DNA from: Escherichia phage vB_EcoM-P3322 | Length of the DNA: 64,000 bases | Sequence record: PV191315.1 | Reading direction: 5' to 3' (one strand) | Shown here: piece after piece, positions 1,989 through 59,619 of the stretch | Layout of the letters: every line of letters starts with the position of its first letter | Numbering within the stretch: the stretch's first letter is position 1 | Made by a program: the position numbers and the translations under genes | The notes under the pieces: model-generated | Database searches by the model: none | Told to the model about the DNA's origin: nothing | The model's input: the letters and a program-made list of their open reading frames with translations, nothing else

Positions 1989-2184
1989 TTCTACCTCCTT
2001 CAATGCTTTGTGCCGTACCATCCCAAGCCATTAGAATGTTTTCCAATAGTTCACGAGGCTCTTTAAACCAAACTTCCATTTCATCAAGAATCTCGTCCGT
2101 GTCGTAAGTATAACCTGGAACACCAAGTTCACATTTCTTAAGATAGCTTTCTAACCAGCGGTGATAATTCTTAACCCCATTCAT
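1981..2184 (-). CDS. hypothetical protein
   Basis: 67-aa ORF in minus-strand array. Confidence 0.5.
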   Translation of the reverse strand: MNGVKNYHRWLESYLKKCELGVPGYTYDTDEILDEMEVWFKEPRELLENILMAWDGTAQSIEGGRNE

Positions 2185-2557
2185 ACTGTGCTACCTTTTC
2201 TTTTACCCAATCTACACGATCTTTATCATAATGTTGAGTGCCAAGGAAAAGACCATTGTGGAAACTTTCCTCACCGAAAGGATAAATTGGATCTAAACCA
2301 TCTTCTTCAAACAACATTTTTAATCTGTTTGATGTAGATTTCTTAGTTTCTGAATTGTAGTTTGTGGTTATAAGCCAATCTTCCAAACAACGACACAAGC
2401 CTTGACGAGAATCCCAAGGAAAAACACAATCTCCGACAGGAGCTTGTTCCGCCCATTTCAACCAACCTTTAAAAAAGTTATACAATATGTAGTCTTCAGT
2501 GTAATACATTAGCGCCTCCTTTACATATACAATAACACCCCGCAGAACGGGGTGCAA
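2171..2557 (-). CDS. hypothetical protein, paralog family A
   Basis: Shares GLC...YPF...R(V/I)xWVKxR motif set with 5 other ORFs in 2-15 kb. Confidence 0.55.
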   Translation of the reverse strand: MHPVLRGVIVYVKEALMYYTEDYILYNFFKGWLKWAEQAPVGDCVFPWDSRQGLCRCLEDWLITTNYNSETKKSTSNRLKMLFEEDGLDPIYPFGEESFHNGLFLGTQHYDKDRVDWVKEKVAQYEWG

Positions 2558-3176: not shown

Positions 3177-3449
3177 TCACCCCCAAGAAATATTTATATA
3201 TCTTACAATGTTTGCACTGTCTAAAGCCATGTTTGCACCACACCCACGCTCGCGCCAGTAACTAACAATACCTTCACAGATACTCTCTTGTATCTTCTTA
3301 TCACTTGGCATTTCTAGTATAAGACTTGGGTTGTGGATGTTTATGTTATAATATCCTTCCTCTGCGGCTTGAGCTACCAATTTACTTACTTTTTCAAAGT
3401 ACGGGGAATTAGTGGCATCTGCCATTGTTTTTAAGGTTTGTCTATCCAT
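3177..3449 (-). CDS. hypothetical protein
   Basis: 90-aa ORF in minus-strand array. Confidence 0.5.
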   Translation of the reverse strand: MDRQTLKTMADATNSPYFEKVSKLVAQAAEEGYYNINIHNPSLILEMPSDKKIQESICEGIVSYWRERGCGANMALDSANIVRYINISWG

Positions 3450-3814
3450 TATTCTGCCTCATCATAGAAGAAATCCAACTCTTGTTCCAGTTGTTTAACT
3501 CGATCCTTAACCCACTGTACACGTTTTTCATTAAACATGCAACGTTTTTCCTTACACTCTTGCTCAAAAGATTTTGCTGTGTTAAATGGGAAAGTTGTAT
3601 CTAAGCCAGCGTTTTCAAAACTGGCTAATTGCATACCATAAACAGAATATGCTAAAGAATGCTCGGCCCGAAATTCATCACTTATATACATACGTAGACC
3701 TCGGCATAAGCCAACATCAGCGTAACCACTTTCTCTTGGAAAGAGCCGGAGGTGTTCTAACCAATTATTATAGAAATCTAAAAGAATCCTCTTACACTTC
3801 AAATCGATTGTCAT
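3449..3814 (-). CDS. hypothetical protein, paralog family A
   Basis: Start at internal ATG (rc 3812-3814) with GAAGGAGA RBS; GLC / FPF / RVQWVKDR motifs. Confidence 0.55.
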   Translation of the reverse strand: MTIDLKCKRILLDFYNNWLEHLRLFPRESGYADVGLCRGLRMYISDEFRAEHSLAYSVYGMQLASFENAGLDTTFPFNTAKSFEQECKEKRCMFNEKRVQWVKDRVKQLEQELDFFYDEAE

Positions 3815-4214
3815 AAAAAGTTTCTCCTTCATCAAACAAGTTGGCAAGATTGTTCACGGCAATCTGGGTGGAAAGAAGACAACTGTTTGCAGACACATAA
3901 GCACGAGCTATTTTGTAAACATAGACTTTCGTATTACAATTATCTAGGATCGGAAGACTTTCGTCGATAGCATCTATAACACTAAACATCACATCTAAAA
4001 CTTTAATGGTGAGTGTTGTATTTGTATCTTCGTAACCTTTTTCAATCCGACCTGAATAGAAAGCATAGTCCTCAACAGTTCGTCGTTTAAACTGGCGCAT
4101 AAAATCGGAACCATCTGTAGCAGAATTGAACAAATTTTCAAAAAATACGTCCCATCCGGCAAAAAGGGCTGACAGCATGATTAAGTGATCTACAGATTCA
4201 TTTTCTTGTTTCAT
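3792..4214 (-). CDS. hypothetical protein
   Basis: 140-aa ORF in minus-strand array. Confidence 0.5.
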   Translation of the reverse strand: MKQENESVDHLIMLSALFAGWDVFFENLFNSATDGSDFMRQFKRRTVEDYAFYSGRIEKGYEDTNTTLTIKVLDVMFSVIDAIDESLPILDNCNTKVYVYKIARAYVSANSCLLSTQIAVNNLANLFDEGETFYDNRFEV

Positions 4215-4222
4215 ATCCTCTC

Positions 4223-4900
4223 CTATTTAATGTTCAGTCTGGCACACAAACGAGAAACAGTTTTAGCATCCCATTTACCACCACGTGCTGTTGCTATTTT
4301 CTTACTATTGAATTTTTCAGCAATAGTTTTGTAAGGGGTATTTAAATCTCTAAGGATCTCCAAGCGTTCACGGAATGTCTCTGCAAAAGCGTCTGCTTTA
4401 ACAGAATTGTATTCCATTTTTCCTTTTCTACGTGCAGCGGCAGTTTTAGGATTAGCACTGCCTAATAAAACACCTTTACTTTTTGCTACAGCAAGACCCT
4501 TTTTAATACGATCAGCAATACCTCTAACTTCTTGTTCAGCCAGAACAGACAGAAGCTGTATAACCATTTTATCTGCGTCTGGCATAATGGCTATCTTAAC
4601 ATCGATCATTTCTAGAAGAGTTGCTACGGAGGCGTTGTTACGACCCAAGCGGTCAACTTTAGCTACCAATAAAGTTGCTCCGGTAGCTTTACACATTTCA
4701 ACCGCTTTAACCAGTTCCTTACGTTGCTTCCAATCGCCCTTACCCGAATAGTATTCAGAAAATTGACCAATAACTTCCGCATCAGGCACAGAGTCTAAGA
4801 AGTAACGGATATCATTCTCTTGGCTCTCCATACCATATTGTGCCTCACCTTTTTTCTGTTTAGAAAGACGACTGTAAACAACAAACTTTTTCATAACCAC
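4223..4900 (-). CDS. small serine recombinase (resolvase/invertase family)
   Basis: N-terminal VYSRLSKQ catalytic-Ser region, LLVAKVDRLGRN signature, C-terminal basic HTH-like tail; own promoter. Confidence 0.8.
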   Translation of the reverse strand: MVMKKFVVYSRLSKQKKGEAQYGMESQENDIRYFLDSVPDAEVIGQFSEYYSGKGDWKQRKELVKAVEMCKATGATLLVAKVDRLGRNNASVATLLEMIDVKIAIMPDADKMVIQLLSVLAEQEVRGIADRIKKGLAVAKSKGVLLGSANPKTAAARRKGKMEYNSVKADAFAETFRERLEILRDLNTPYKTIAEKFNSKKIATARGGKWDAKTVSRLCARLNIK

Positions 4901-6332: not shown

Positions 6333-6659
6333 TCAACTATTTATTTCTTCTGCTACACGTTCTTTTACCCAGTTCACACGATCCACATTCAAATGACAAC
6401 GGCTTTTTTCCGCTTCTAAGGTGTACTTTCCAAAATTACTGTTGAAAGGCAACACCATAACCAAATCTTTGTGGTAGAACTGCTCATGCATTTCATCCAG
6501 TACGGGTTCGTATCGTTCGCTTTCACCCATATCGTAAAAATCATAGAGGTTCGAGCACAAACCTGTGCAACGGGTGAACGGTTCGCCTTCAGGAGCACCA
6601 GCTTCCAACCATGCCAAATACGTGCGGTAAAATGTTAATAGTTCTTCGCTCATTTCCAC
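6333..6659 (-). CDS. hypothetical protein, paralog family A
   Basis: FYxxYLAWLEAGAP...GLC...LPF...RVNWVKER; closest to 7092-7418. Confidence 0.55.
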   Translation of the reverse strand: MEMSEELLTFYRTYLAWLEAGAPEGEPFTRCTGLCSNLYDFYDMGESERYEPVLDEMHEQFYHKDLVMVLPFNSNFGKYTLEAEKSRCHLNVDRVNWVKERVAEEINS

Positions 6660-6868: not shown

Positions 6869-7092
6869 TCTTCCATCTCAAACCATTCAGGGAACACTTT
6901 GCGGAAGACCCGCGTGTTTTCTAAGAGAAATTCCAACTCTTTTTCCAAATCTGCGTTCCAACCGTTTATTTTAACACGGATTGCCAATGCACTTGCACGG
7001 CGACTCAATTCTTGACAGATTGGATCACGCAGAACTATTGAGTCATAAAACTGACAAACAGCCTCAAGTTCATACCAGTTATAATCCGACAT
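6865..7092 (-). CDS. hypothetical protein
   Basis: 75-aa ORF. Confidence 0.45.
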   Translation of the reverse strand: MSDYNWYELEAVCQFYDSIVLRDPICQELSRRASALAIRVKINGWNADLEKELEFLLENTRVFRKVFPEWFEMEE

Positions 7093-7418
7093 TATTCATC
7101 CTCCTCTGCAATACGATCTCTTACCCAATTAATCCTGTCCACATTCAGGTGACATACCTCTGCATCTGATTCTAAGACATATGCATCGTAGTTCTCATTG
7201 AAGGGTAATTCTTGACTCAACCCTTTGTGGTAAAACTGTGCGTGCATTTCATCTGCCAAGGTTGTTATAAGGGGATTGTAGCCATCCGCGTGCACATAGT
7301 CGAATAAGTTGGCACACAAACCGCAATCCCGCCGAAAAGGTTTACCATCAGGAGCACCAACATCAATCCATGCTAGATAAATTTTATAAAACTCCATCAA
7401 CCTTGCGCTTGTTTTCAT
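7092..7418 (-). CDS. hypothetical protein, paralog family A
   Basis: FYKIYLAWIDVGAP...GLC...LPF...RINWVRDR. Confidence 0.55.
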   Translation of the reverse strand: MKTSARLMEFYKIYLAWIDVGAPDGKPFRRDCGLCANLFDYVHADGYNPLITTLADEMHAQFYHKGLSQELPFNENYDAYVLESDAEVCHLNVDRINWVRDRIAEEDE

Positions 7419-8990: not shown

Positions 8991-9000
8991 AAATACCCCC

Positions 9001-9399
9001 TTATCGTTGCGTACAATCAGCTTCTAGAGTAAGAACATTCGTTATTGTTTTATCATTTTTTAGAAATGCAAACCAAGCTAAAGTGTCTCGATACTCTGTG
9101 CGCATCATCACAACTTCAGTAGTGCCAATAAACTGTTGTGAACCATACATAGCACTACCATCTTTACTTTTTTCTCCTGTGTATTGCAGAATGCCACTCA
9201 TCAAAGCACCACCTGAATTTTTAAGGATAAAGGAGTTATCTTTATTAATGACAACAGAAGCCATTTTCTTAGGACCAGAAATCACTTCACCTTTCAGATT
9301 TTTAACAACCACATCTGACACACACTCATAAACTTGAGACGCATTTGCTGTTCCGAGTGATGCAATGAGTAACAATAAACCTACGATGATCTTTTTCAT
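9001..9399 (-). CDS. secreted/periplasmic protein
   Basis: N-terminal signal peptide MKKIIVGLLLLIASLGTANA. Confidence 0.6.
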   Translation of the reverse strand: MKKIIVGLLLLIASLGTANASQVYECVSDVVVKNLKGEVISGPKKMASVVINKDNSFILKNSGGALMSGILQYTGEKSKDGSAMYGSQQFIGTTEVVMMRTEYRDTLAWFAFLKNDKTITNVLTLEADCTQR

Positions 9400-9494
9400 A
9401 TAAACTCTCCTCTTTATTTACCCGACGCGCCCCTGTTGGGCGGAAAGGGTTGTACGCAAAATTTTTAGCTCCAATCGTCGGGTGTCCCGACTCC

Positions 9495-9701
9495 TTACGC
9501 TTTTAATGTTTTAACAGAATGACAAGCTTTGCAAACCATAACCGGAACAAGTTCGTCTCCACTGTCCGCATAAATCACTGTTTTCTTCATTCTGCTACCA
9601 CATGAACAATACTCTGTATGATCCGCTGGAATATTAAATATTCCGTAATCACTTTCATACTGTTTCTTACATATGGACACTGCTTTTGTAAAACGAGACA
9701 T
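9495..9701 (-). CDS. hypothetical Cys-rich protein
   Basis: 68 aa with CSCG...CKAC pairs (zinc-ribbon-like). Confidence 0.45.
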   Translation of the reverse strand: MSRFTKAVSICKKQYESDYGIFNIPADHTEYCSCGSRMKKTVIYADSGDELVPVMVCKACHSVKTLKA

Positions 9702-9703
9702 AC

Positions 9704-9925
9704 CTACTCCGCAAGAACATTCACTTCGTCAGAGAAAAATACGTAATCACAACCTTCCCAAACATCTTCTTCAAACCACTCCCATCCCTCAACTTTGGAC
9801 ATTTCTTCTATCGTAACAAAGAATGTTGTCATATCATCGCTAACAAGATGCGCTTCAACAACAAAAGGAATCTGAACATTCTCAAAACCAACATAACCCA
9901 ATACATCACAAACTCTAATTTTCAT
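9704..9925 (-). CDS. hypothetical protein, paralog family B
   Basis: Shares W(E/F)W...DYVFF motif with 13957-14187. Confidence 0.5.
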   Translation of the reverse strand: MKIRVCDVLGYVGFENVQIPFVVEAHLVSDDMTTFFVTIEEMSKVEGWEWFEEDVWEGCDYVFFSDEVNVLAE

Positions 9926-9926
9926 A

Positions 9927-10127
9927 TTATGCTCCTTTGTAGATTATGTTGGTGCGTTCACACTCTGCCACCAGCAAGCGATTAGCAATGTTGTCCATAG
10001 GAACATCAATCTCTACGCTCCAGGCATTGATATACACTTCTTCAATCTTTGCTCCAAGCATTTGTGCGATCAGAGCAACAGCCCCAGCATATTCAAGTTT
10101 AATCTCAATTACCATTTTGCACCTCAA
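9927..10127 (-). CDS. hypothetical protein
   Basis: 66-aa ORF. Confidence 0.45.
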   Translation of the reverse strand: MRCKMVIEIKLEYAGAVALIAQMLGAKIEEVYINAWSVEIDVPMDNIANRLLVAECERTNIIYKGA

Positions 10128-10129
10128 GG

Positions 10130-10330
10130 TTATTTATCTTGCTTGTATCTTACAAGGCGATCACACTCCAGGTCAAGAAATTTCTCCGCATTTCGTTCGT
10201 GTTTGAGCACAATACATTGTTCTTTCCAGTCTGTAGCTCTTTGCTGCGCTGCTCCTGGGTCAAAATCCCAAAGCCATGCCGCGAAAAGAACAACCATAAC
10301 AATTACTAAGAAACTAAACACTATTGGCAT
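10130..10330 (-). CDS. small membrane protein
   Basis: Start at internal ATG (rc 10328-10330) with AGGAGG RBS; TM helix IVFSFLVIVMVVLFAAWLW. Confidence 0.45.
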   Translation of the reverse strand: MPIVFSFLVIVMVVLFAAWLWDFDPGAAQQRATDWKEQCIVLKHERNAEKFLDLECDRLVRYKQDK

Positions 10331-10635
10331 TGCACATCCTCCTGTGTAGCATGGTCTTTTACCCATTTTATACGGGCAGCATTCAAATGCAATAGCCCGT
10401 TTCTTTGTGCAAAATCATATTTAAACCAGTCTCCGTCATCAAACGGGTATTCTTCAGACAATCCTGCCTCACGGAATTGCATTTGCATTTCATAATTTAG
10501 ATCATCATAACCTCCAGTCCAAAGGTAGAGGCAACTACATAATCCTTTATCATGCCAGAAAGGATTATTATCTGGAGCACCAGCTAATAGCCAATTATGA
10601 TATGCCTGATAAAATTCTTTAAGTTCCTCTGACAT
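10321..10635 (-). CDS. hypothetical protein, paralog family A
   Basis: FYQAYHNWLLAGAP...GLC...YPF...RIKWVKDH. Confidence 0.55.
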   Translation of the reverse strand: MSEELKEFYQAYHNWLLAGAPDNNPFWHDKGLCSCLYLWTGGYDDLNYEMQMQFREAGLSEEYPFDDGDWFKYDFAQRNGLLHLNAARIKWVKDHATQEDVQCQ

Positions 10636-10812
10636 TTAACCTCCTGTATATAGTGTTGAAAGATACACAGCAAAAGCATTCTCGGCTGTTTTCACCTCCT
10701 CTTCAAGATCTTCACGCTCTGCTGGCGTTAATGCATTCCGCACAGCAGCGTCTGCTTCTCGGATTTTTCTTACTAAACGTGAAACATCTTTCAGTTGTTG
10801 AAAAGTAGCCAT
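10636..10812 (-). CDS. hypothetical small protein
   Basis: 58-aa ORF (MATFQQLKDV...); stop overlaps next ATG (GGAGGTTAAATG). Confidence 0.4.
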   Translation of the reverse strand: MATFQQLKDVSRLVRKIREADAAVRNALTPAEREDLEEEVKTAENAFAVYLSTLYTGG

Positions 10813-10827
10813 AGTCTTTCTCCTGTT

Positions 10828-11187
10828 TTAGTGAGTGTCGCGCCATTCGGCAATCTCTTCGGCTAAACGATCACAAGAATCGAAAGCCACTTTACCTTCG
10901 CCAGGGTAGTTCCAGAAGACACCCCGTGAATCTGTAATGTTTATATGATACTTGTCCCACATCTCTTTTGCAAGTGGTCGATCAACATATCCTTCAAAAT
11001 ATACTTCAGTTTCTGCTGAATATGGAGTGTAATCGCTGGCAGCAAAAGCGTTCTGGAAGATCACCATCACATTACGTGTTGTGCTTGGATGCATCAATTG
11101 GTGAAATTTTAACAATCTTCCGTTGATCCTAACAACATCTCCTTCAAACAAGGAGATATCTTTTACTTTACGAAATTCTCCGCTCAT
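10828..11187 (-). CDS. hypothetical protein
   Basis: 119-aa ORF. Confidence 0.55.
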   Translation of the reverse strand: MSGEFRKVKDISLFEGDVVRINGRLLKFHQLMHPSTTRNVMVIFQNAFAASDYTPYSAETEVYFEGYVDRPLAKEMWDKYHINITDSRGVFWNYPGEGKVAFDSCDRLAEEIAEWRDTH

Positions 11188-11196
11188 TTTACCCCC

Positions 11197-11388
11197 TTAA
11201 TACACATCTCCTACAAACCAGATTTCTGGATCGCCATACTGATCCTTCTCGTAAGATTTATAGACACTACAGCAATATTTCAAAACACCATCGACAAGGA
11301 TTGTTGATCTTTCTTCTGGAATCTCTGTGATTTCACCTTTGCGGGTTTCGAAGATGGTATCACCCTTTTCAATCAGTCTGATTTTCAT
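11197..11388 (-). CDS. hypothetical protein
   Basis: 63-aa ORF. Confidence 0.45.
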   Translation of the reverse strand: MKIRLIEKGDTIFETRKGEITEIPEERSTILVDGVLKYCCSVYKSYEKDQYGDPEIWFVGDVY

Positions 11389-11587
11389 ATCGTACTTCCT
11401 TCAATGCGAGTAATGCATTTACCAGATTATCAACACCTTGATCATCCAGTGCGATAACATCGAAGTTAAACCCTGTGTCAGTTGGGACTTTACGTTTTAT
11501 GGTGTAATAGTCCCCTTCATGACGTTCAACATACACGTATGGGTAACTGCTGTTCGGATCATGTTTCACGCGAATAGATGTTTTCAT
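11369..11587 (-). CDS. hypothetical protein
   Basis: 72-aa ORF. Confidence 0.45.
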   Translation of the reverse strand: MKTSIRVKHDPNSSYPYVYVERHEGDYYTIKRKVPTDTGFNFDVIALDDQGVDNLVNALLALKEVRYENQTD

Positions 11588-11602
11588 GTTTTGTTCTCCT
11601 CT

Positions 11603-11854
11603 TTAGTCAAACCAGTTGTATTCAGAAGGGTAACGAGCGTAGTTTGGCTTATACCCCAGCCTTTTCATCTTGACAGACATACGAGTGAAGCCAAAAGTTG
11701 TTTTGCCCTTAGACATAAACTTCTTCCCACTCTTCATTGGCTTCTTAGGGTCTTTGATCGTCTGGTGTAACGCTCGCGCAAGCCACAAAGTGTATGCGCT
11801 CGGCACTTGATTAACTTTCATCTTGTTACCTTTCATCATTTTACCTCGGACCAA
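11603..11854 (-). CDS. small basic protein
   Basis: 83 aa, Lys/Arg-rich (possible nucleic-acid binding). Confidence 0.5.
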   Translation of the reverse strand: MVRGKMMKGNKMKVNQVPSAYTLWLARALHQTIKDPKKPMKSGKKFMSKGKTTFGFTRMSVKMKRLGYKPNYARYPSEYNWFD

Positions 11855-12135
11855 TCAATAGTGATCCACTCGTATGCCCCGTTCAGATCCATTTCTTTAT
11901 AAACAATAAGCCCACGCTCACGAAGAATTGCTACTGCTTCATCCATCCACTTCACCTGATTGTAGATCTGCTCTGGGTGGGTGGGAGAATTATTCAGACC
12001 AAAATCGGATGGCGTGAAATTTCTTGAAGAGTTTCCCGCTCGGGCTTCAGCAAAACATGTCTCGATCACTTCTTCAACAGGGAAATTGAAGGAAGCTTCT
12101 TTTGCAATACGGCGTAACTGTTCGGTCAGATTCAT
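11836..12135 (-). CDS. hypothetical protein
   Basis: 99-aa ORF. Confidence 0.5.
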   Translation of the reverse strand: MNLTEQLRRIAKEASFNFPVEEVIETCFAEARAGNSSRNFTPSDFGLNNSPTHPEQIYNQVKWMDEAVAILRERGLIVYKEMDLNGAYEWITIDWSEVK

Positions 12136-12162
12136 CTTATTCTCCTTTCGTTGTGCGAAACA

Positions 12163-12600
12163 TTATAACAGATCTAATGCTTTCAACTCTTCTTTCAATG
12201 ATTCAGGCAGGTCACATTCAATGTCAATCAGAGATAACAAGTGACCAACAATGCCTTCCAGATGTTGATACTCACTATAACTTATAAATTCAGAATTGTA
12301 AACAGAAACATCCTTAGTTTCTTTCACAACTTCCCCCGCAGACACGCACATAAAAAAGTTACGCTCTCCGCGAGCTAACAATATCTCCCAACTCCTGAAC
12401 GGATACTGTCCAGCTTCAATAATATCTCCACTGTCCAGTAAAGTCAATGAGCAAACAGACCCTGATTCACTAACATCTTCGACGCGGAAACAAGACCCTT
12501 CAATCAAAGCTGCCATTTTGAAATTTTCATCAGAGATCATAGAGAAAGCTTCACATGCAGCTTTACTTTTGAAACAATAAACAGCATTAACTTTAAACAT
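12163..12600 (-). CDS. hypothetical protein
   Basis: 145-aa ORF. Confidence 0.55.
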   Translation of the reverse strand: MFKVNAVYCFKSKAACEAFSMISDENFKMAALIEGSCFRVEDVSESGSVCSLTLLDSGDIIEAGQYPFRSWEILLARGERNFFMCVSAGEVVKETKDVSVYNSEFISYSEYQHLEGIVGHLLSLIDIECDLPESLKEELKALDLL

Positions 12601-12612
12601 AACATTCCCCTT

Positions 12613-13068
12613 TTAAACAAAAGATACGCCGATGGTAGCAACAACCAAACGTTTATAAACTTCAACCTCTTCTGTAGGATTAGCCATTTTATGCTCTGCT
12701 GCTTCTTTCAAAGCTTCTTCATAACTTTCAAATCCAGAAATACAGGTGTCATCAGTCATTACAACATACCACTCTTCTTTTGTTGTATCAACAGGTTCTT
12801 CTTGGGGTTTTCCACGACCACCGCGAATACCACCGTCAACAAAATAATCTATATGAGCAGAATTGATTATGTAACGATCCCCATCACTAGCAGTGATAAT
12901 ACCGTCTCTCCCTATCACAACAATTGACAAGATATTACCATTTGCATCAGTGCTCAACACCTCGAAAAAATTCTCTCCAATGATAGCAGCAATACTGTTA
13001 TCAAAGGTAGAATATAGTCGCATATAATCCTCATCCTGGAAACGGTAGACATGACCTTCTTTAAACAT
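12613..13068 (-). CDS. hypothetical protein
   Basis: Start moved to internal ATG (rc 13066-13068, MFKEGHVYRF) with AAGGAG RBS. Confidence 0.55.
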   Translation of the reverse strand: MFKEGHVYRFQDEDYMRLYSTFDNSIAAIIGENFFEVLSTDANGNILSIVVIGRDGIITASDGDRYIINSAHIDYFVDGGIRGGRGKPQEEPVDTTKEEWYVVMTDDTCISGFESYEEALKEAAEHKMANPTEEVEVYKRLVVATIGVSFV

Positions 13069-13246
13069 TGTATGCTCCTTCTTGTTCAAGAGTAAAAGGA
13101 ATGATCTCACCATAGCTGTATTGCATGGCATCCACTTCTGCTTCTGCACGTTGTGCTAGTTCTAATGTTGCACAGATCTTGTAAGGGACAGTGCTGCATT
13201 GGCTCCAGCCTGGGTATTCTTTGTTACTAAATATACAGTAGTTCCT

Positions 13247-13708
13247 TTATTCATAACTTTCTCCTCTTAGTTCATCATACCATTTCAAAGCGTCTTTTGG
13301 AAGCATACCAAAATCTTCTTTTAGTTCTTTTTCAATCTCTTCTTGCATTTCCATCAGCGTTTTCAGTTGACGGACTTTTTTGTGCATAGCCACATTCCTT
13401 TCATTAAGGTTTGTCACTACATTATTTGCACGACTTGGTGGAAATGACAAAGGTTTCACGGGAAGATAATCTTCGATATTATCTAGTGCGTTACGAAAAT
13501 TATGATCCAAGAAACGTACATCTACACGATTGTAATCGGCAGCTACAACAGTGAACACTTTAAACGGCACATTGGATAAAGTATGTTGCACATAGACAGT
13601 ACCCATATTGCCTTCAATTTTACTATTAACTTCCAGCAAACCTGTATGAGCACTAACATAATCGTGAACACATTGCACATAAGCTGCCAGTATAGTGAAT
13701 TGTCTCAT
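13247..13708 (-). CDS. hypothetical protein
   Basis: 153-aa ORF. Confidence 0.55.
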   Translation of the reverse strand: MRQFTILAAYVQCVHDYVSAHTGLLEVNSKIEGNMGTVYVQHTLSNVPFKVFTVVAADYNRVDVRFLDHNFRNALDNIEDYLPVKPLSFPPSRANNVVTNLNERNVAMHKKVRQLKTLMEMQEEIEKELKEDFGMLPKDALKWYDELRGESYE

Positions 13709-13953
13709 TTTCTACCTCCCCATAATGCTAACATTTTATTGAAAATGGAAACGCGTCGTGCGCGAGATGCCATATCATAATTCATTCTTTCCGTCTCTGC
13801 AAGAAATTGATCTACTGTAATCAACGCTTTTGTCTTCTCTTTCAGAGTTTGCATATTCATCCATTCACATTCAGAATACCAATTATCGAAATACAAACTA
13901 TCAAGAAGATCCATTGCTGCTTCGTTCTGCTGTGGTGTGATCATTGCACACAA
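13705..13953 (-). CDS. hypothetical protein
   Basis: 82-aa ORF. Confidence 0.45.
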   Translation of the reverse strand: MCAMITPQQNEAAMDLLDSLYFDNWYSECEWMNMQTLKEKTKALITVDQFLAETERMNYDMASRARRVSIFNKMLALWGGRK

Positions 13954-13956
13954 CCT

Positions 13957-14187
13957 TTAATAGACAATTTCATATTCGTGAGGAAAGAAAACATAATCTT
14001 CCCCTTCTCGTGCATCTATCTCGTCCCAAAACCATTCCTGCACTTCCATCATCTTCGAGAATCGCACATGAGCAAGCCCACTGTATTCCACCGTAGCTTC
14101 CAGCACAAGTGGAAATTTTGCATGTGCCAATCCTTTATAACCACCATCATTCTCAATACGAATTTTCATGCGTTTCATATTATGCAT
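13957..14187 (-). CDS. hypothetical protein, paralog family B
   Basis: EWFWDE...EDYVFF motif shared with 9704-9925. Confidence 0.5.
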   Translation of the reverse strand: MHNMKRMKIRIENDGGYKGLAHAKFPLVLEATVEYSGLAHVRFSKMMEVQEWFWDEIDAREGEDYVFFPHEYEIVY

Positions 14188-14389
14188 CCTTCAGACCCTT
14201 AATGAAATAACGACCAACCGGATTCCCTCGGAAGTATTCGTTAATGAAATCGATAACACACGTTTCACTACCTGTCACAACGGACGGTGCGAAGTTTCGG
14301 AACTGCACGAGTACACGACTTGCGTTAGCAAGGGTGTGCACACGATCAGTGTTAGCTAAATACAAGGATACAGTTTTCAAATTCTTCAT
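14180..14389 (-). CDS. hypothetical protein
   Basis: 69-aa ORF. Confidence 0.45.
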   Translation of the reverse strand: MKNLKTVSLYLANTDRVHTLANASRVLVQFRNFAPSVVTGSETCVIDFINEYFRGNPVGRYFIKGLKDA

Positions 14390-14438
14390 TTCATCTCCTC
14401 ATTGGCTATCTGTTATGTCATCCATTATACAAACATCT

Positions 14439-14813
14439 TTATTCAAAGCAAACATTATTTGCATCTTCAATTCTGTCTTTCACCCATTGAAGACGTAACG
14501 TGTTGGTATGACACGCCAAGTTTATACACTCTGAAAGGTAATCCATGCAATCTGCATTGAACGGAAGATTGTAGTCCAGCCCTGCACATGTAAACTGTTT
14601 CCTCATTTCGTATTTCAAACTATCCAACAAACGATCACGCCATCTTTTATCTTCTTCTCTGGTTGTCTCACCAACAAAATCATCTACATAATCTACCAGA
14701 CAACCACATAAGCCACTCGTTGTGCGATTCATTGCAGGATAGTTGGCAATCCATGCTTTATAGAAGCGAAGCAATGTTGCACTACTCAACGGAATATTTT
14801 TACTCTCTTGCAT
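14439..14813 (-). CDS. hypothetical protein, paralog family A
   Basis: FYKAWIANYP...GLC...LPF...RLQWVKDR. Confidence 0.55.
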   Translation of the reverse strand: MQESKNIPLSSATLLRFYKAWIANYPAMNRTTSGLCGCLVDYVDDFVGETTREEDKRWRDRLLDSLKYEMRKQFTCAGLDYNLPFNADCMDYLSECINLACHTNTLRLQWVKDRIEDANNVCFE

Positions 14814-14819
14814 GACAAT

Positions 14820-16391
14820 CTCCTCTCATCGTTAGCCATCTTTCATGGCAATCATCAATCACCAACATCATACGATCAATCTCAGGGAATTACAATCGAA
14901 TTATCATAGGGGATTCCTATCAATTATCCCATATATACCGATTATTTTTGACACCCCACTCTTGTATAAAAAGTAACCCAAAATATCTACGGGGAGAGAT
15001 TATTTCGGGACACCCTGTTTCATGGCAATCATGGCAAGAATATCTAATAGAATCAATATCATATGGCAAAAATCATGACGCATACGTAAGAAGTGCTTAA
15101 CGCGAATTTTCGGGCCGTCAGGTCCACGCAGCGACAATTCCCAAATATCATGAGAATGAGAATAATTATCATTCGTATTCAATGACTTATGCAAGGCTCA
15201 TGCCAACATAGCGACAAGGTGGGCCACTTGATTATAAATCACACAAACACTTATTTATCAATAGGTTGGCAACTTCATCATATGACGGAACATTGTCAAC
15301 TGATCCCGCTCATGACAAGCAGACTATTATTTATATGAGAATGATTATTATTTAAACGTTTATTAACATAAAAATTAAAATAAATCAAGAATTTTCTGAT
15401 TTTATTTACGTTTAAGAGAAGATGCTCAACATCCTACCGGATCGCCGTTGGCAATCCTCGGATATTTACGCCCCCATGATTAAGGTTTATCTCTTTTCTT
15501 AGTGCTCAACATTCCCGCCCGTGGCGGTAACATTTCGCCCCCAAAATTATTGCTTTTTATTCTATTATGTGCATAGTGTGCAATGTATCGGAATGATGAT
15601 AATCATCCTCCCATTGCCCCCATAATTATTGCCATGCTAATGATTTCATCTTGTAATTACCACAATGATTATTGTTATTGCGCTAATGTTATGATCTTGG
15701 TAATTACATATAATGCTAATAATAAGCCAGCGCAATAAGTGTAAGCGTCATTACGCTTGCAATTATTGCAAGCTACGCAGTAACAAGAAATAACCATCAC
15801 CGATGGTTATGATTGTTGGGGTGTAGTTGGCTTATTATTAGCTCGCTATGTGTCCGGCATAGCGTGCTAATGATGATCCTGGGAATGATTCGTTTTGTAA
15901 TGATTTCATTCAGTCACTATTATGGCAATAGTTATTATTTTAATGGTTTCGTTTGTTATTGTTCGTTAGTTGGTTGTTTTGTCGTGTTATCGTTATCTTG
16001 CTTAGTATTCATCATGGTTTGATTGTTTGTCGTTATCAATCATCTTGCTATTATTCCTTTGATTATGATTAGTTTGCTTATTGTTTTAGGTTGTTGGTTA
16101 GTTAGTTGTTGCGAACTATTATCAACATTATAGTTATGCACTTATATTGCATAGATAAACATGGATAGATGATAATGGTTATCATTGAACTAGAAAAGAG
16201 GTAAAAGGGTGTTTTTGATGGTTTGTTGTTGGTTGTTGATCGATTTTAACCGCTATAAATGGCTCTCTAACAGCCTGTTACCCTGGGAGGTATGGTTATT
16301 CGTTTAATGGTTGATTAGCTCGATACCGCGATTTATTCAATTTTGTTCTGTGTCGGTTTTTCATAGGCGAAAGCTATCAACATTGTTCGGG
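14820..16391. other. 1.6-kb non-coding AT-rich region with GATAAT/ATCATT palindromes and short repeats
   Basis: No credible ORF; palindromes GATGATAATCATC (~15596) and TGATAATGGTTATCA (~16166), AAGCGTCATTACGCTT, GCAATTATTGC; recurring GCTAATGAT and GAGAATGA motifs. Confidence 0.5.
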
Positions 16392-16428
16392 CAAAAAGAA
16401 AGGGCGCTTGGTGCGCCCCTTGTTTTGT
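16392..16428 (-). terminator. bidirectional intrinsic terminator-like hairpin
   Basis: GGGCGCTTGGTGCGCCC stem-loop flanked by A-run and T-run; just downstream of 16435-16854. Confidence 0.55.
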
Positions 16429-16434
16429 TGTCGC

Positions 16435-16854
16435 TTATAACGCTTCATAGATTGAGTAGATCCGGTTTGCCAGATCATTACGAAAGCGGAATTTTTCATC
16501 ACGTTTGATCATCAGATCCTTAAAACCGCATTCTTTCAGTGCTTCATTAACTTTATGGCGGCAAACGTTCATATTATCCTGCGCGTCACCAATAAACTTA
16601 TTGCTGTGATGCATTGCTTTGATCTCTTCCTCTAATACCAGGGCAACTACACGGATCGGATCAAGCTGATATGCGGTAACATCCATGCGGCATTGTAGAC
16701 GGCTTTTAACATCGTTTACCGGATATACTGCAACCTCTTCCCCGTCAACGTTCACAATAACCAATTTACCATCGATTTCGAAGCCTTTGGCGGCGCTACC
16801 GTGACAAAAAGCGTTATCGAAGGAGTAAGCTGGATTATTTGATTTAATGTTCAT
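16435..16854 (-). CDS. hypothetical protein
   Basis: Start at internal ATG (rc 16852-16854, MNIKSNNPAY); flanked by terminator hairpins. Confidence 0.5.
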   Translation of the reverse strand: MNIKSNNPAYSFDNAFCHGSAAKGFEIDGKLVIVNVDGEEVAVYPVNDVKSRLQCRMDVTAYQLDPIRVVALVLEEEIKAMHHSNKFIGDAQDNMNVCRHKVNEALKECGFKDLMIKRDEKFRFRNDLANRIYSIYEAL

Positions 16855-16949
16855 AGTGTTATCCTTTGTTTCGTTGTTTGCTGCCAGTGAATTAAATATA
16901 ATATAACGCCGATCCCCTGTCAATAGGGGATAGCGCATTATTTACATTT

Positions 16950-18679: not shown

Positions 18680-18979
18680 TTAGATCGCTGTTTCCAGTAG
18701 TTCGGCTAACGTCTTACCGCCTGATAGTTGGTCTAACGTTTGCTCTTCTGGCAAGAAATTAGCTGATATTAATCCGACTTGATTTCCTTTGTGCCAATTA
18801 GCTTGACGGATGATTCCATCCTTTAAAGATTTTACCGCCATTGTGCAACCGTCGCCAAATGATTCATTTTTATGATCCATCACTTCATAAGCGCCCAGCT
18901 TGCTACTGTTAGGCACCATTAACGCGAATACATCACCAACAACCAGTTTTTCTACGGTAATAATAGCGATAGTTTCCAT
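18680..18979 (-). CDS. hypothetical protein
   Basis: 99-aa ORF, GAGGA RBS, module upstream. Confidence 0.5.
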   Translation of the reverse strand: METIAIITVEKLVVGDVFALMVPNSSKLGAYEVMDHKNESFGDGCTMAVKSLKDGIIRQANWHKGNQVGLISANFLPEEQTLDQLSGGKTLAELLETAI

Positions 18980-19007
18980 TTTACTTTCCTCATTATCGGC
19001 GGCACCA

Positions 19008-19064
19008 TTGCCGCCCTACGTGGTAAATATTAGCACACTGGCGATCTGTGTCAATACTTTTTAT
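19008..19064 (-). promoter_or_regulatory. promoter + 5' GC-hairpin module
   Basis: rc: TTGACA, 17-nt spacer, TAATAT, CACGTAGGGCGGCAATGGTGCCGCC. Confidence 0.55.
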
Positions 19065-19447
19065 TCAATATAAATCAAATTATCTTCACCAATGTAAGCC
19101 GACACGTTCGGCATAAACTTAGCTGCATTGGTTAGGCGGTTGGCTGTGTTAGTGGTGTATATTTCAGGGCGATCCCAAAAGCCTACGCCGTGACCGTTAC
19201 GGGTAAAATGTAAATCATTCCCGATCTGGTTGGCTGTTGCGCCGTCGCTCATTGCCTCAGAGATAGCGGCAAGATTAGCATTAATAAAGGCTGTTACATC
19301 CTGGGCGATCCGTTGATCTGCGCTAGGAGAAAAATCATAATCGTCTAAGTTATCAATAAAATTACCTTCATGATCCCTTGCTGATTCAGCAAAAATAAAG
19401 GCTTCTTTATAGCCGTTGATGATTTCAATAATGATTTCTGTTTTCAT
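19061..19447 (-). CDS. hypothetical protein
   Basis: 128-aa ORF. Confidence 0.55.
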   Translation of the reverse strand: MKTEIIIEIINGYKEAFIFAESARDHEGNFIDNLDDYDFSPSADQRIAQDVTAFINANLAAISEAMSDGATANQIGNDLHFTRNGHGVGFWDRPEIYTTNTANRLTNAAKFMPNVSAYIGEDNLIYIE

Positions 19448-23873: not shown

Positions 23874-24101
23874 TCAGATTAATTCATCCAGGCATAACAG
23901 GCGATCAACGTTGAGATCGGTTAGGCTGATGGTTGGCACCTGGTAGGATTCGATGTACTCGACGCTTGCATATTCCCCAAAATTAGCAACAGCCCACTTA
24001 TTCAAGATCTCACATACATCATTAATCTTTTTGTTTGTTACAACTGCAATGACCTGGGAAGTGCCAACGGTGCCGGATACGCGAACAATATTGATAGCCA
24101 T
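23874..24101 (-). CDS. hypothetical protein
   Basis: 75-aa ORF. Confidence 0.45.
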   Translation of the reverse strand: MAINIVRVSGTVGTSQVIAVVTNKKINDVCEILNKWAVANFGEYASVEYIESYQVPTISLTDLNVDRLLCLDELI

Positions 24102-24122
24102 AATCTTTAATCTCTCTGTTTT

Positions 24123-24182
24123 GGCGGGAAACCACTTCCCGCCCTATGTGATACATCTTACACTAATTTTAAACGTTGTCAA
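24123..24182 (-). promoter_or_regulatory. promoter + 5' GC-hairpin module
   Basis: rc: TTGACA (24177-24182), TAAGAT-type -10, CACATAGGGCGGGAAGTGGTTTCCCGCC. Confidence 0.55.
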
Positions 24183-24191
24183 CTGTTTTTA

Positions 24192-24431
24192 TTACATTCC
24201 AACCATCGCGGCACGGATCGCAGTAGTGCTATATTTGAAACCGTCTGGCGTTTTATCTTGTCCAGTTTGTTCCAGAAAAAGCATCATATCCCGCGCCGCA
24301 TCATTACGATTAGCATTAGCGTTAATAAAATCTTGGGCCAACCGGTATAACGATTCATCGTTATTAATCCAAAGGCTTACATTCCAATGAGTTTTGTTTT
24401 TGTGACCGTTGTACATTTTAGATTTAGCCAT
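24192..24431 (-). CDS. hypothetical protein
   Basis: 79-aa ORF. Confidence 0.45.
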   Translation of the reverse strand: MAKSKMYNGHKNKTHWNVSLWINNDESLYRLAQDFINANANRNDAARDMMLFLEQTGQDKTPDGFKYSTTAIRAAMVGM

Positions 24432-26769: not shown

Positions 26770-27042
26770 TTAAAGCAAAAACGCTACATCTTGCGCTTTT
26801 AGTGTAGTATCAACCATTTTCGGGCTTTTATAATCAACAAAGCGCGCGGTTTTTTCAATAGCGAAACCGAGATAATCTTGCTTGTTGAAATTACATTCTT
26901 TCTTAAATGTTTCCCGTGCAATGGCAATCGCTGCGTCCAGGGATAAACGCCCGTCAATATTGATATTAGCGAAAGATCCGCCACCGCTCATAGGTTTACC
27001 AGTGGTGCCAGCTACGATCATTGTTGCGCTATATGATGCCAT
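26770..27042 (-). CDS. hypothetical protein
   Basis: 90-aa ORF. Confidence 0.5.
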   Translation of the reverse strand: MASYSATMIVAGTTGKPMSGGGSFANINIDGRLSLDAAIAIARETFKKECNFNKQDYLGFAIEKTARFVDYKSPKMVDTTLKAQDVAFLL

Positions 27043-27067
27043 GATGATAATCTCTCTTCTGTTACGA

Positions 27068-27126
27068 GCGGGAAACCACTTCCCGCCCTATGTGATACAT
27101 CTTATCAGGTTGTTGTTTGTTGTCAA
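27068..27126 (-). promoter_or_regulatory. promoter + 5' GC-hairpin module
   Basis: rc: TTGACA (27121-27126), TAAGAT-type -10, CACATAGGGCGGGAAGTGGTTTCCCGC. Confidence 0.55.
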
Positions 27127-27132
27127 TACTTT

Positions 27133-27330
27133 TTATTCTATCCCTGCAATTTGATTAACGCGCTTGCATTTTGTAGCGTGCTGGTCTTCTGTAATGACTC
27201 CCATTTCTAACAGGGAATCAATGAAAGATAAAACCGTTTCATGATCATCCTGGGGATGACTGAACTCAGTAAAACCGTTTACTATTACGTTGATTTGTCC
27301 AGCTTTCGCCACAATATGCAATGTTGCCAT
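27133..27330 (-). CDS. hypothetical protein
   Basis: 65-aa ORF; unusually long GC-rich 5' leader. Confidence 0.45.
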   Translation of the reverse strand: MATLHIVAKAGQINVIVNGFTEFSHPQDDHETVLSFIDSLLEMGVITEDQHATKCKRVNQIAGIE

Positions 27331-37391: not shown

Positions 37392-37565
37392 ATGGGAGAT
37401 AAACAAAGTAACATCCGTTACGCGCTTTATGGAAGAATGGGTGCAGATTGTGAATGGATGCTTCTGTCGCAACGTATACCCTCTTACAAAGAGGCTCTTG
37501 AAAAAAGAGACTATTACAAACAAACATGGCGTTTTGTCATTTGTAAACACTATTTGGAGGCGTGA
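37392..37565 (+). CDS. hypothetical small protein
   Basis: 57-aa ORF (MGDKQSNIRYALYGRMG...) with AAGGAGG RBS. Confidence 0.35.
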   Translation: MGDKQSNIRYALYGRMGADCEWMLLSQRIPSYKEALEKRDYYKQTWRFVICKHYLEA

Positions 37566-37873
37566 TGAGTACATTATCATTAGCAGTTACGGTGCACCAG
37601 TATTACGAAGAAGCTGTAAAAGATTCAGAAAATCCATCTACATTAGTATTTGAAGATCGGACTGGTCTTAAGTGGGTAGAATCTTGTGGTGAACTTTACT
37701 TTTGGTATCCACAAGGTTGCACAAGTAATTCTAATTTGTATAGTTATGAATTGGAGTATCGTGCGCCTGTAGACGAAGATGATAATTACATCATGTATTA
37801 TGTTAATAATGGTTGCGGTGAAACGTTTAATGTAGTATTCTCTAAAGCCTTGAAGTCCGACGAGGAAATGTAA
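37565..37873 (+). CDS. hypothetical protein, tandem paralog 1
   Basis: TLSLAVTVHQYYEEAVKD...YRAPVDEDDNYIMYYVNNG; paralog of next gene. Confidence 0.5.
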   Translation: MSTLSLAVTVHQYYEEAVKDSENPSTLVFEDRTGLKWVESCGELYFWYPQGCTSNSNLYSYELEYRAPVDEDDNYIMYYVNNGCGETFNVVFSKALKSDEEM

Positions 37874-38178
37874 TGCGGCACAATACGACTTTAAGTTTGG
37901 CAGTTGCAGCCCACATGCTGTACAATGATTCTGTGAAGGATGAGTTGTCGCCTGTGAGTTTAGCTTTCCATCTGATAGACAGGGATTGGATGTTCTCTGG
38001 TGAGGATGAAATCTACTACGTAAATTCACGCGGTTTTATTGAAAGTTTTGAACTTGAACATCGCGCACCAACAGCAGAAGATGATCGTTTTATTATGTTC
38101 TGTGTAAATGATGGTTACGGAGAGGTATATGACGTAGTATTCTTCAAAAACCGACAGAAGACTGAAGAGGAATTCTAA
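37873..38178 (+). CDS. hypothetical protein, tandem paralog 2
   Basis: TLSLAVAAHMLYNDSVKD...HRAPTAEDDRFIMFCVNDG. Confidence 0.5.
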   Translation: MRHNTTLSLAVAAHMLYNDSVKDELSPVSLAFHLIDRDWMFSGEDEIYYVNSRGFIESFELEHRAPTAEDDRFIMFCVNDGYGEVYDVVFFKNRQKTEEEF

Positions 38179-54298: not shown

Positions 54299-54861
54299 TG
54301 GGTTGTTTTAGCTTTTTGTGCAAAGAATCGGGCAAAGCTGCCCTTTCTACTTCTTTCGACGGATCACCTTGCTACCTCTTTCTTTTGAAGGACGGTGTTG
54401 TTATTGAAGAGATGTATGGCAACTATGATAGTTATGGTTGTGTTTTCTCTGGAAAGGAGGATGAAAACGGCGTTCGTGAACGGTTCGAATGGGCTATGGA
54501 TTGGGGTAAGGTTTGTGATTTGATGCATTCCTCAAATCCAAGGGACGGTATCGCTATGGTGCTGGAAGAGTACTTTACAGGTGAAATCCCTACAGAACAA
54601 TCTGACGGAGATCCTAACCAAGGTTGGGGTGATGGTGAAGAAGATCCAGATTGTTTTTTCAGCACAGAAAAGAATAAGTTTAAACGTGTTGACAACCCTT
54701 ATCACAAAGTGCATAATACTCTCATTGAAACAGAAGATGACAAGATGGAAATTGAAGAAGATGATCCTCTTGTAACACTTCCTATAAGTGAGTTACAAAA
54801 GATCACTAAGGAAGCTTACGATTTGGGCTTCAAAATTGGTAGAGGAGGTATGCGTGTTTAG
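54298..54861 (+). CDS. hypothetical acidic protein
   Basis: 187-aa ORF. Confidence 0.5.
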   Translation: MGCFSFLCKESGKAALSTSFDGSPCYLFLLKDGVVIEEMYGNYDSYGCVFSGKEDENGVRERFEWAMDWGKVCDLMHSSNPRDGIAMVLEEYFTGEIPTEQSDGDPNQGWGDGEEDPDCFFSTEKNKFKRVDNPYHKVHNTLIETEDDKMEIEEDDPLVTLPISELQKITKEAYDLGFKIGRGGMRV

Positions 54862-55132
54862 ATTCAATATTCAAGAAGAAAAAAGTCAGGATTTACCTAT
54901 TGCTTTCGAAGATCTTGACGTAGGGGCCACATTCATGTATTATGATGCCTATGAAGACGCAGGGTTGGATACCTACCGTAACTTGGTGTTCATTAAAAAT
55001 TCCACAAACAGTGCGATTTGTATTAATGGATCACTAGCACAACGAGGCTATACTCATTGCATCCCACCAGATACAAATATGGTGGAAGTAGATTTAGAAG
55101 TTACCAATATTACACTTAAGAAGGAGAAATAA
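54854..55132 (+). CDS. hypothetical protein, Ter-associated small paralog 1
   Basis: GTG start after AGAGGAGG; (D/E)DLDVGATFMYYDAYEDAGLD...VTNITLKK parallels 56154-56423. Confidence 0.45.
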   Translation: MFRFNIQEEKSQDLPIAFEDLDVGATFMYYDAYEDAGLDTYRNLVFIKNSTNSAICINGSLAQRGYTHCIPPDTNMVEVDLEVTNITLKKEK

Positions 55133-55928: not shown

Positions 55929-56173
55929 TCGACGAGCTTGCCTCTCAAGTCATAGAAAATTATTGGCGCGAGAGAGAAGCTTTCATTATGCGCAGTCTCA
56001 AAGAGTATTTCATTGGGACTGTGCGAATGGAAGATATTGTAAGTAGAGTAGAGATTCATGTATGGCCTGATTATGAAGAATGGGTTGACAAAGAAAATGA
56101 AAATGCTATAATTCTTCGTATATACAAACCGGAGATAACATTAGGAGGAAGAAGTGTTAAACTTCGAAATTGA
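55925..56173 (+). CDS. hypothetical protein
   Basis: 82-aa ORF. Confidence 0.45.
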   Translation: MIDELASQVIENYWREREAFIMRSLKEYFIGTVRMEDIVSRVEIHVWPDYEEWVDKENENAIILRIYKPEITLGGRSVKLRN

Positions 56174-56423
56174 TGAGCAAAAAGTAAATAAACGATGCCT
56201 TACCATTAAAGATTTGGATGTAGGAGATACTTTCGTCTATGAAAATGCATTTGACGAAAATGGTTTAGACCTTAGTGAAATCATTGTTTATTTAAAAGTA
56301 GATGATGGGGAAAACGATTATTCTGCTGTAGAACTAAACCATCATGCACAATTAGTATCAATCCAAAACACATCTAAGCTTTTGGAAGTAGAATTGACTG
56401 TAACTGGTATTACACTTAAATAA
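56154..56423 (+). CDS. hypothetical protein, Ter-associated small paralog 2
   Basis: GTG start after GGAGGAAG; KDLDVGDTFVYENAFDENGLD...VTGITLK. Confidence 0.45.
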   Translation: MLNFEIDEQKVNKRCLTIKDLDVGDTFVYENAFDENGLDLSEIIVYLKVDDGENDYSAVELNHHAQLVSIQNTSKLLEVELTVTGITLK

Positions 56424-58935: not shown

Positions 58936-59619
58936 ATGGAAAATATTAAAATCGGAGTGGGTGTTATCACTGTAGGTGTCCGTCCACTTAAAGACTACCT
59001 TGTAACAGATCCACGTGCAGATTTTCGAGTATTCAACGATCCAGATCGTAAAGGTGTAGCTTATGCCAGGAATGAACTTATGCACCAGTTTTATGAAGAA
59101 GGTTATGATTATTGGTTTATTTTTGACGATGATTGCTACCCAGTCATGGAGGGATGGGAAACATACTTTGTAGATCAAGCTGTCTCTGGAGGATGGGATT
59201 TCTTTGGTATGCCGGAGTATTTCAAAGATAAAGTTGTTGGAAGCAAAGGAGAAGTTATTCTCTGGGAACTTGCAATGTGTCAATTTGCAATGTATTCTCG
59301 TGCCGTTGTTGAGAAGATGGGTTATTTCCGTCCTTACACTCACGGTTATGGTTTTGAAGATGCTGAATGGGGACACCGTTTGCAAGCTGCTGGTTTGAAT
59401 CATGGTATTCAGGCAACACCTTGTCCACTTCGTATCATGGCTTATATCCACCCAGACGATGTTTTTGGAAACAATCCTATGCCTTTTGCTAACCTGACAA
59501 AAGAAGAGAAAGAGGCTGCTATTGGGATTAACTGGGAAGAATATAAAGCATCTTTAGAGGATATTAAAAATGGGAAAATCCGAATTTCCTATGAGGAGGC
59601 ACTAGCACATGTCAAATAA
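58936..59619 (+). CDS. glycosyltransferase family 2-like protein
   Basis: GVGVITVGVRP...KGVAYARNE...YWFIFDDDCYP (DxD)...GYGFEDAEWGHRL. Confidence 0.6.
   Translation: MENIKIGVGVITVGVRPLKDYLVTDPRADFRVFNDPDRKGVAYARNELMHQFYEEGYDYWFIFDDDCYPVMEGWETYFVDQAVSGGWDFFGMPEYFKDKVVGSKGEVILWELAMCQFAMYSRAVVEKMGYFRPYTHGYGFEDAEWGHRLQAAGLNHGIQATPCPLRIMAYIHPDDVFGNNPMPFANLTKEEKEAAIGINWEEYKASLEDIKNGKIRISYEEALAHVK

Follow-up and report, generated by a model that had tools for sequence, protein, structure and literature searches.

The closest described relatives of the two genes studied here are automatic protein clusters, namely PHROG 15322 and its sisters 13367, 13854, 20482, 9595 and 7345, which are labelled 'unknown function', and the pVOG entry VOG6032, a tag carried by the orthologues in phages alia and anhysbys. 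All of these are automatic entries that describe neither fold nor domain architecture nor paralogy. The two genes, named B1 and B2, lie about 4 kb apart in Escherichia phage vB_EcoM-P3322 (sequence record PV191315.1), of which a stretch of 64,000 nucleotides, referred to as the window, was analysed. Both proteins are end-to-end members of PHROG 15322 and are already known, since they are 96-100% identical to deposited hypothetical proteins of dozens of Phapecoctavirus genomes and are grouped by PHROGs and pVOGs. Within PHROG 15322 and its kin, they represent a short, domain-only form, in contrast to at least 21 relatives that possess a further C-terminal module. The present analysis indicates that B1 and B2 are, with high probability, old paralogues built from a phage-only, modular barrel domain (family B). 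It adds a confident structural model of this domain, the modularity of the family (single domain, tandem domains, or domain plus C-terminal helical module), its spread over Stephanstirmvirinae, T4-like and T1-like phages, and its recurrent linkage to a second multi-copy family, named A. The two genes are the following:

9704..9925, minus strand: B1, 73 amino acids, isoelectric point (pI) 4.05, family B domain only, PHROG 15322
13957..14187, minus strand: B2, 76 amino acids (73 from the ATG at 14178), pI 5.25, family B domain only, PHROG 15322

An earlier note, made from the DNA letters alone, had paired the two open reading frames (ORFs) on the basis of a shared W(E/F)W...(E/G)xDYVFF near the C-terminus. 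Both ORFs were found exactly at these coordinates on the minus strand, and the motif is present in both proteins, B1 reading ...GWEWFEEDVWEGCDYVFFSDEVNVLAE and B2 reading ...EWFWDEIDAREGEDYVFFPHEYEIVY. The similarity extends beyond the motif over the whole protein: in a single BLASTP comparison 26 of 71 residues were identical (37%, with 54% positives; E=3e-13), and E was 1.3e-10 in a search of the full set of 424 window ORFs with 40 or more amino acids. B1 aligned with positions 1-73 of the 73 positions of PHROG 15322 (E=3.3e-44) and B2 with positions 1-72 (E=2.1e-41), and both also matched PHROG 13367, more weakly. A hidden Markov model (HMM) built from 52 family B domains recovered B1 and B2 (1e-31 and 1e-32) but no other ORF of the window at E below 0.1; the window thus holds exactly two copies. 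The neighbouring ORF 9927-10127, which gave a weak BLAST match to B2 when three sequences were searched (E=0.02), was rejected as a further copy since it was unsupported by this HMM.

The start of B1 is preceded by an AAAGGAG ribosome-binding site 7 nucleotides before the ATG. That of B2 is ambiguous between the ATG at 14187 (MHNMKRMKIRI) and the ATG at 14178 (MKRMKIRI), with an AAGG-type site at both; the ATG at 14178 lies 1 nucleotide past the stop of the upstream gene, and the conserved domain starts at the third Met, at 14169. Ratios of non-synonymous to synonymous substitution rates (dN/dS), obtained against Mt1B1_P17, anhysbys and phiWec188, were 0.08-0.14 (B1) and 0-0.17 (B2), dS reaching 1.3-1.5. 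Given the ribosome-binding sites, the low dN/dS and the confident AlphaFold2 model described below (predicted local distance difference test, pLDDT, of 95), B1 and B2 are real protein-coding genes.

Word-indexed protein searches returned just 7, 4 and 5 close matches, and the wider family became visible only when 1.84 billion cluster representatives were searched exhaustively with a profile; this search yielded 47 representatives at E up to 1e-3, 20 of them at E up to 1e-10. At least 21 of the 47 are longer proteins (112-246 amino acids) in which residues 1-70 form the B domain and a linker connects it to a conserved helical module at the C-terminus, about 55 residues in length (RK..L..L...YG.A...YESECG...EEEKRLL.EI.KMIEEGV). 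Two tandem B domains are found in three representatives (P0025, P0043 and P0051), and the C-terminal module occurs as a stand-alone ORF in the locus L097. B1 and B2, which stop 3-5 residues past the barrel, are the minimal, domain-only form of this modular family, and an HMM of the C-terminal module found no match in any window ORF (best E=0.31). A split module beside the two genes was also considered, since 'YSECEW' in 13705-13953 and 'QYESDYG' in 9495-9701 resemble YESECG, and was rejected because the same HMM did not match them (E=9.5 for 9495-9701). The C-terminal modules of P0050, P0019, P0036 and P0037 gave weak matches (E=2e-4 to 6e-6) to Pfam DUF7438, PHROG 26590 and PHROG 25740, those to DUF7438 being below the Pfam gathering score; these entries thus resemble a part of the longer relatives that B1 and B2 lack. 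Scans of IMG/VR with the family alignment or with the pattern of the C-terminal module gave one locus each, and a pattern scan of metagenomes gave at least 120 matching stretches; HMM searches of 122 loci confirmed a B domain or a C-terminal module in ten, eight of them new from the metagenome scan. As judged by sequence comparison, family B is a phage-restricted family of a domain of about 70 residues, corresponding to PHROG 15322 and the sister families 13367, 13854 and 20482. One metagenomic protein, P0013 (141 amino acids), is B2-like over residues 1-55 and resembles the C-terminal half of the product of 12613-13149 over the remainder. It is a natural deletion-fusion variant and therefore implies that some relative lost about 1 kb by deletion.

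The structure of B2 was predicted by AlphaFold2 from a 24-sequence alignment, with a pLDDT of 95.2, a predicted template modelling score (pTM) of 0.83 and a pLDDT of at least 93 in all five models. This run replaced an earlier one on 7 sequences, which was unreliable (pLDDT 75, and 38-54 for the other four models). In the model, residues 5-11, 27-33, 39-41, 65-67 and 73-75 form strands, residues 43-46 a short helix, and residues 47-64 a long, ordered loop carrying WxW...D..EG. Thus, the high-confidence prediction for the B domain is a compact beta-barrel of five strands and one short helix, in which an exposed acidic and aromatic loop (WxW..D..EG) runs into the DYVFF strand. The sequence pattern of the family conserves the aromatic positions Y17, W/F52, W/Y54, Y65 and F67, and the positions conserved in at least 90% of members (K8, I9, G19, P26, V41, D58, G62, Y65, F67 and E71) lie mostly in the core and in turns. 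Variation within the domain is greatest in the WxW loop, which is shortened in one clade. A Foldseek search of the model against the PDB gave no significant solved relative (best E=0.75). The closest solved folds, at sub-significant scores, were SH3-like small beta-barrels (SH3, KOW, the retroviral integrase C-terminal domain and PsaE), and the predicted topology can be called SH3-like, with membership of that fold unproven. A B-like predicted fold, with template modelling (TM) scores of 0.68-0.83 and a Foldseek probability of 1.0, was obtained for small proteins of other phages: ZCKP1 A0A2Z4QD94 (Klebsiella), Merlin A0A0K1LND4 (Citrobacter), RB49 Q76ZG7, Tls gp04 and Proteus phiP4-3 gp045/gp046. 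Whereas the protein of ZCKP1, a member of the Stephanstirmvirinae, is 61% identical to B, the T4-like and T1-like proteins show weak similarity at the N-terminus, with identities of 21-35% or lower. They are equally uncharacterised, and what they add is the distribution of the fold and no function.

The window was assigned by DNA comparison to the genus Phapecoctavirus (Stephanstirmvirinae, phAPEC8-like E. coli myophages), the region 9000-15000 sharing 96-98% identity with roughly 45 complete E. coli myophage genomes of this genus, with Mt1B1_P17 as best match (about 97%). All genes across this region are labelled 'hypothetical protein' in the record of Mt1B1_P17. GC skew divides the window into a leftward arm of minus-strand genes (about 1-34000) and a rightward arm, and B1 and B2 lie in the leftward arm, in a dense run of genes of 60-180 codons each. 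This arm is mosaic, as related genomes match it in 2-6 pieces.

We then considered when and how the two copies arose. A comparison of 9401-10900 with 13701-15000 by blastn at word size 7 gave only chance matches of up to 21 nucleotides, with no DNA similarity between B1 and B2 or their flanks, and this absence of residual nucleotide similarity rules out a recent segmental duplication. The small ORFs between A and B at the two loci likewise show no similarity to each other. Phage phiWec188 keeps both copies in the same relative places, with 73% identity to B1 and 71% to B2. A neighbour-joining tree of the B domain places B1 in a clade with P0016 and P0017 and B2 in another with P0014, P0015, P0018 and P0019; both clades contain two-domain relatives. 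Since DNA similarity is lacking, phiWec188 has separate orthologues of the two genes and they fall in separate clades, sequence comparison indicates that the pair predates the diversification of the genus, through an old duplication or a double acquisition, and is not an event of this genome. An in-genome duplication and a separate acquisition by recombination are indistinguishable here.

In the second of these cases, B1 and B2 would be xenologues, brought into the same accessory arm by recombination with phages that carried different family members. The mosaic structure of the arm and the two different clades are in line with this, the nearest relatives outside the genus being two-domain proteins encoded on unrelated metagenomic contigs (those named above for each copy). 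So is the patchy presence of the copies: genes at least 95% identical to B1 were found in 63 phage records and to B2 in 44, anhysbys has B1 and no B2, and Justusliebigvirus has only one copy, which shares 53% identity with B2 and 37% with B1, the B1 type being absent. However, the order of A gene, small ORF or ORFs and B is the same at both copies in the window and in phiWec188, which is more easily explained by duplication of a cassette, and the domain tree, of 72 columns, is poorly resolved. Separate acquisition is, therefore, regarded as possible, and descent by an old duplication is preferred.

The cassette just mentioned involves family A (PHROG 2510), of which an all-against-all BLAST identified six copies within 13 kb, all on the minus strand and 26-54% identical to each other:

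2171-2557, minus strand: family A, PHROG 2510
3449-3847, minus strand: family A, PHROG 2510
6333-6659, minus strand: family A, PHROG 2510
7092-7418, minus strand: family A, PHROG 2510
10321..10635, minus strand: family A gene upstream of B1, PHROG 2510 E=8e-29, A-family HMM 3.4e-33
14439..14813, minus strand: family A gene upstream of B2, PHROG 2510 E=3e-25, A-family HMM 2.3e-36

The members of family A have invariant GLC, PF and R..WV motifs, and no relative of the family was found in Pfam or the PDB. In the direction of transcription, the order is A (10321-10635), 10130-10330, 9927-10127 and B1 at the first locus, and A (14439-14813), 14180-14389 and B2 at the second, so that each B copy lies 250-400 bp downstream of an A gene. 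A relationship between the B and A proteins themselves was rejected (hhalign probability 0.1%). In Mt1B1_P17 (L001 10182-10526), anhysbys and L012, one or two extra A genes stand directly upstream of the orthologue of 14439-14813, at a place where the window has none (about 14814-15200), and therefore the copy number of family A varies among close relatives.

It could be speculated that B and the upstream A gene form a two-gene module, with B as partner, regulator or adaptor of A, and that this cassette was amplified instead of a single gene. Besides the spacing of 250-400 bp at both B copies, in the window as in phiWec188, the start of one gene overlaps the stop of the other in Klebsiella phage phi1_175008 (order B-A-B) and in the metagenomic loci L002 and L049 (order A-B), and further arrangements with both families were A-B-B in SF1-1, A-X-B in L003, three A genes followed by B in L012, and B, B plus C-terminal module, and A in L103. 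Nevertheless, with six A copies in 13 kb, chance proximity is not rare; four A copies of the window have no adjoining B; KP13-26, L033 and the T4-like phiP4-3 have B with no A within 2-4 kb; and much of the linkage may be synteny inherited among related phages. Such a module is unlikely in our view, and the linkage is treated as a lead because family A is dense in this arm. A broader proposal, that family B is an undescribed phage-specific SH3-like domain family which, together with A, makes up a co-amplified two-gene cassette of Stephanstirmvirinae accessory arms, perhaps diversifying inhibitors of host factors or defences, is considered more unlikely again. If it were true, the acidic WxW loop would set target specificity, and the optional C-terminal helical module would mediate oligomerisation or a second contact.

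In large virulent phages, early, accessory and host-directed genes typically form long runs of tiny, closely spaced genes, and host-takeover and anti-defence factors are usually sought among the small, acidic, dispensable, duplicated genes of accessory arms. Judged by their place in an arm of this kind, B1 and B2 would be early, accessory genes of a host-directed type, and they may be dispensable for the phage because B2 is missing from many close relatives. In T4-like phiP4-3, a tandem pair of B-type genes is located in an early region, between alc and pseT. We speculate that B is a stand-alone, strongly acidic protein-binding module that would engage a partner, from the host or the phage, at an early stage of infection, in the service of host takeover or counter-defence, and that B1 and B2 would differ in specificity as a result of duplication and of divergence in the variable WxW loop. 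This role is suggested because the domain is a small, acidic, SH3-like barrel with a variable loop, is fused in a modular way, appears dispensable and duplicated, and occupies accessory or early-type positions in three phage groups. Several results weigh against this proposal. No function annotated or experimentally shown for any member of family B was found in databases or the literature; Pfam (E up to 1), NCBIfam and PADLOC (both E up to 0.1) gave no family for B1 or B2; and a sequence search of the PDB gave no match for family B, nor for family A. A literature search found no transcriptome of the genus, early expression resting on gene position, and a scan for sigma-70-like promoters detected 34 sites against 22.4 +/- 5.4 expected, a weak enrichment. 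Moreover, a binding module is a generic reading of size, charge and context. For these reasons, the evolutionary and structural description of the pair is held to be very probable and its functional part tentative and rather doubtful, and the explanation as a whole, with paralogy, structure and function together, is given slightly better than an even chance.

Binding of nucleic acid, in the manner of SH3-like barrels such as KOW domains and integrase C-terminal domains, or mimicry of DNA, would be another role for such a domain, and we regard it as improbable, a protein-binding role being preferred. Finally, that the B1/B2 similarity is an artefact of chance or composition, or that the ORFs are not genes, has in its favour the small size and the lack of functional annotation, nothing further, and is refuted by the alignment at E=3e-13, the common PHROG at 1e-41 to 1e-44, purifying selection, the ribosome-binding sites, the pLDDT of 95 and the 47 diverged cluster representatives, so that its probability is practically negligible. 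The pair is, in sum, an ordinary example of paralogy among the accessory-arm genes of a large virulent phage; it matters little alone and is a reasonable, unremarkable candidate for a functional screen.

The earlier note had also pointed to a separate tandem pair of paralogues on the plus arm, here called C1 and C2:

37565..37873, plus strand: C1, 102 amino acids, first gene of the tandem pair, PHROG 7812
37873..38178, plus strand: C2, 101 amino acids, second gene of the tandem pair, its start overlapping the C1 stop (TAATG)

This pair is real, with 44% identity over 102 amino acids (E=3e-20), and both products match PHROG 7812 over positions 1-104 of 105 (E=4e-40 for 37562-37873 and E=3.3e-17 for 37873-38178). 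The C1 start given by the note, an ATG at 37565 with GGAGG 4 nucleotides upstream and an ATGA overlap with the upstream stop, is better than the mechanically called GTG at 37562. Orthologues of C1 are found in about 130 phage records. C2 is polymorphic, being at least 90% identical in just 35 of the 132 phage records with matches, and distant members of its family were seen in the jumbo phages Yersinia fHe-Yen9-04 and Erwinia pEa_SNUABM_50. The counterparts of C1 and C2 in Mt1B1_P17 are labelled 'hypothetical protein'. A relationship between B and family C through their endings ('EGEDYVFF' and 'G.GE.Y.VVFF', respectively) was rejected (hhalign probability 0.2%). The proposal of several independent small-gene duplications in the window stands insofar as the B and C pairs are each truly homologous and unrelated to one another; it has to be qualified in that the B duplication is ancient and inherited, and B is perhaps not fully independent of family A.

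With regard to the surroundings of B1 and B2, a serine recombinase of 225 amino acids is encoded at 4223-4900 on the minus strand, amid the small leftward-arm genes of this virulent myophage (Pfam Resolvase N-terminal domain, E=5e-18). Between the gene 16435-16938 (minus strand) and the cluster of A, intervening ORF and B2 lies an ORF-poor, AT-rich stretch of about 1.6 kb (14814-16434), with GC down to 29-31%. A terminator-like hairpin (16421-16399) follows the gene 16435-16938, and the sign of the GC skew switches near 15700, inside this stretch. Scattered short repeats occur here, including two copies of CC(A/C)T(C/G)TTTCATGGCAATCAT at a spacing of 177 bp, which hold TTGCCA, a -35-like hexamer on the minus strand. 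Rfam and tRNA searches gave no match in the stretch. Unannotated gaps of 1.6-2 kb occupy the equivalent position in alia, SF1-1, KP13-26, phiWec188 and metagenomic L002. Within the genus, several GenBank records begin or finish inside this gap. Some near-identical Phapecoctavirus genomes have been deposited as Campylobacter, Acinetobacter or Pseudomonas phages, probably with mislabelled hosts.

The all-against-all search revealed further paralog sets in the window besides A, B and C. The tandem genes 59609-60559 and 60567-61511 (plus strand) encode proteins of about 315 amino acids that are 41% identical over 303 residues (E=6e-77), with weak matches to glycosyltransferase group 1 and family 4. 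Weak paralogy was detected between 54788-55132 and 56154-56423 (plus strand; 33% over 89 amino acids, E=1e-10) and among 23953-24390, 26882-27154 and 18900-19073 (plus strand; 54% over 54 amino acids, E=6e-11). As the latter three are on the plus strand within the minus-strand arm, their similarity may reflect repeated DNA rather than genes.

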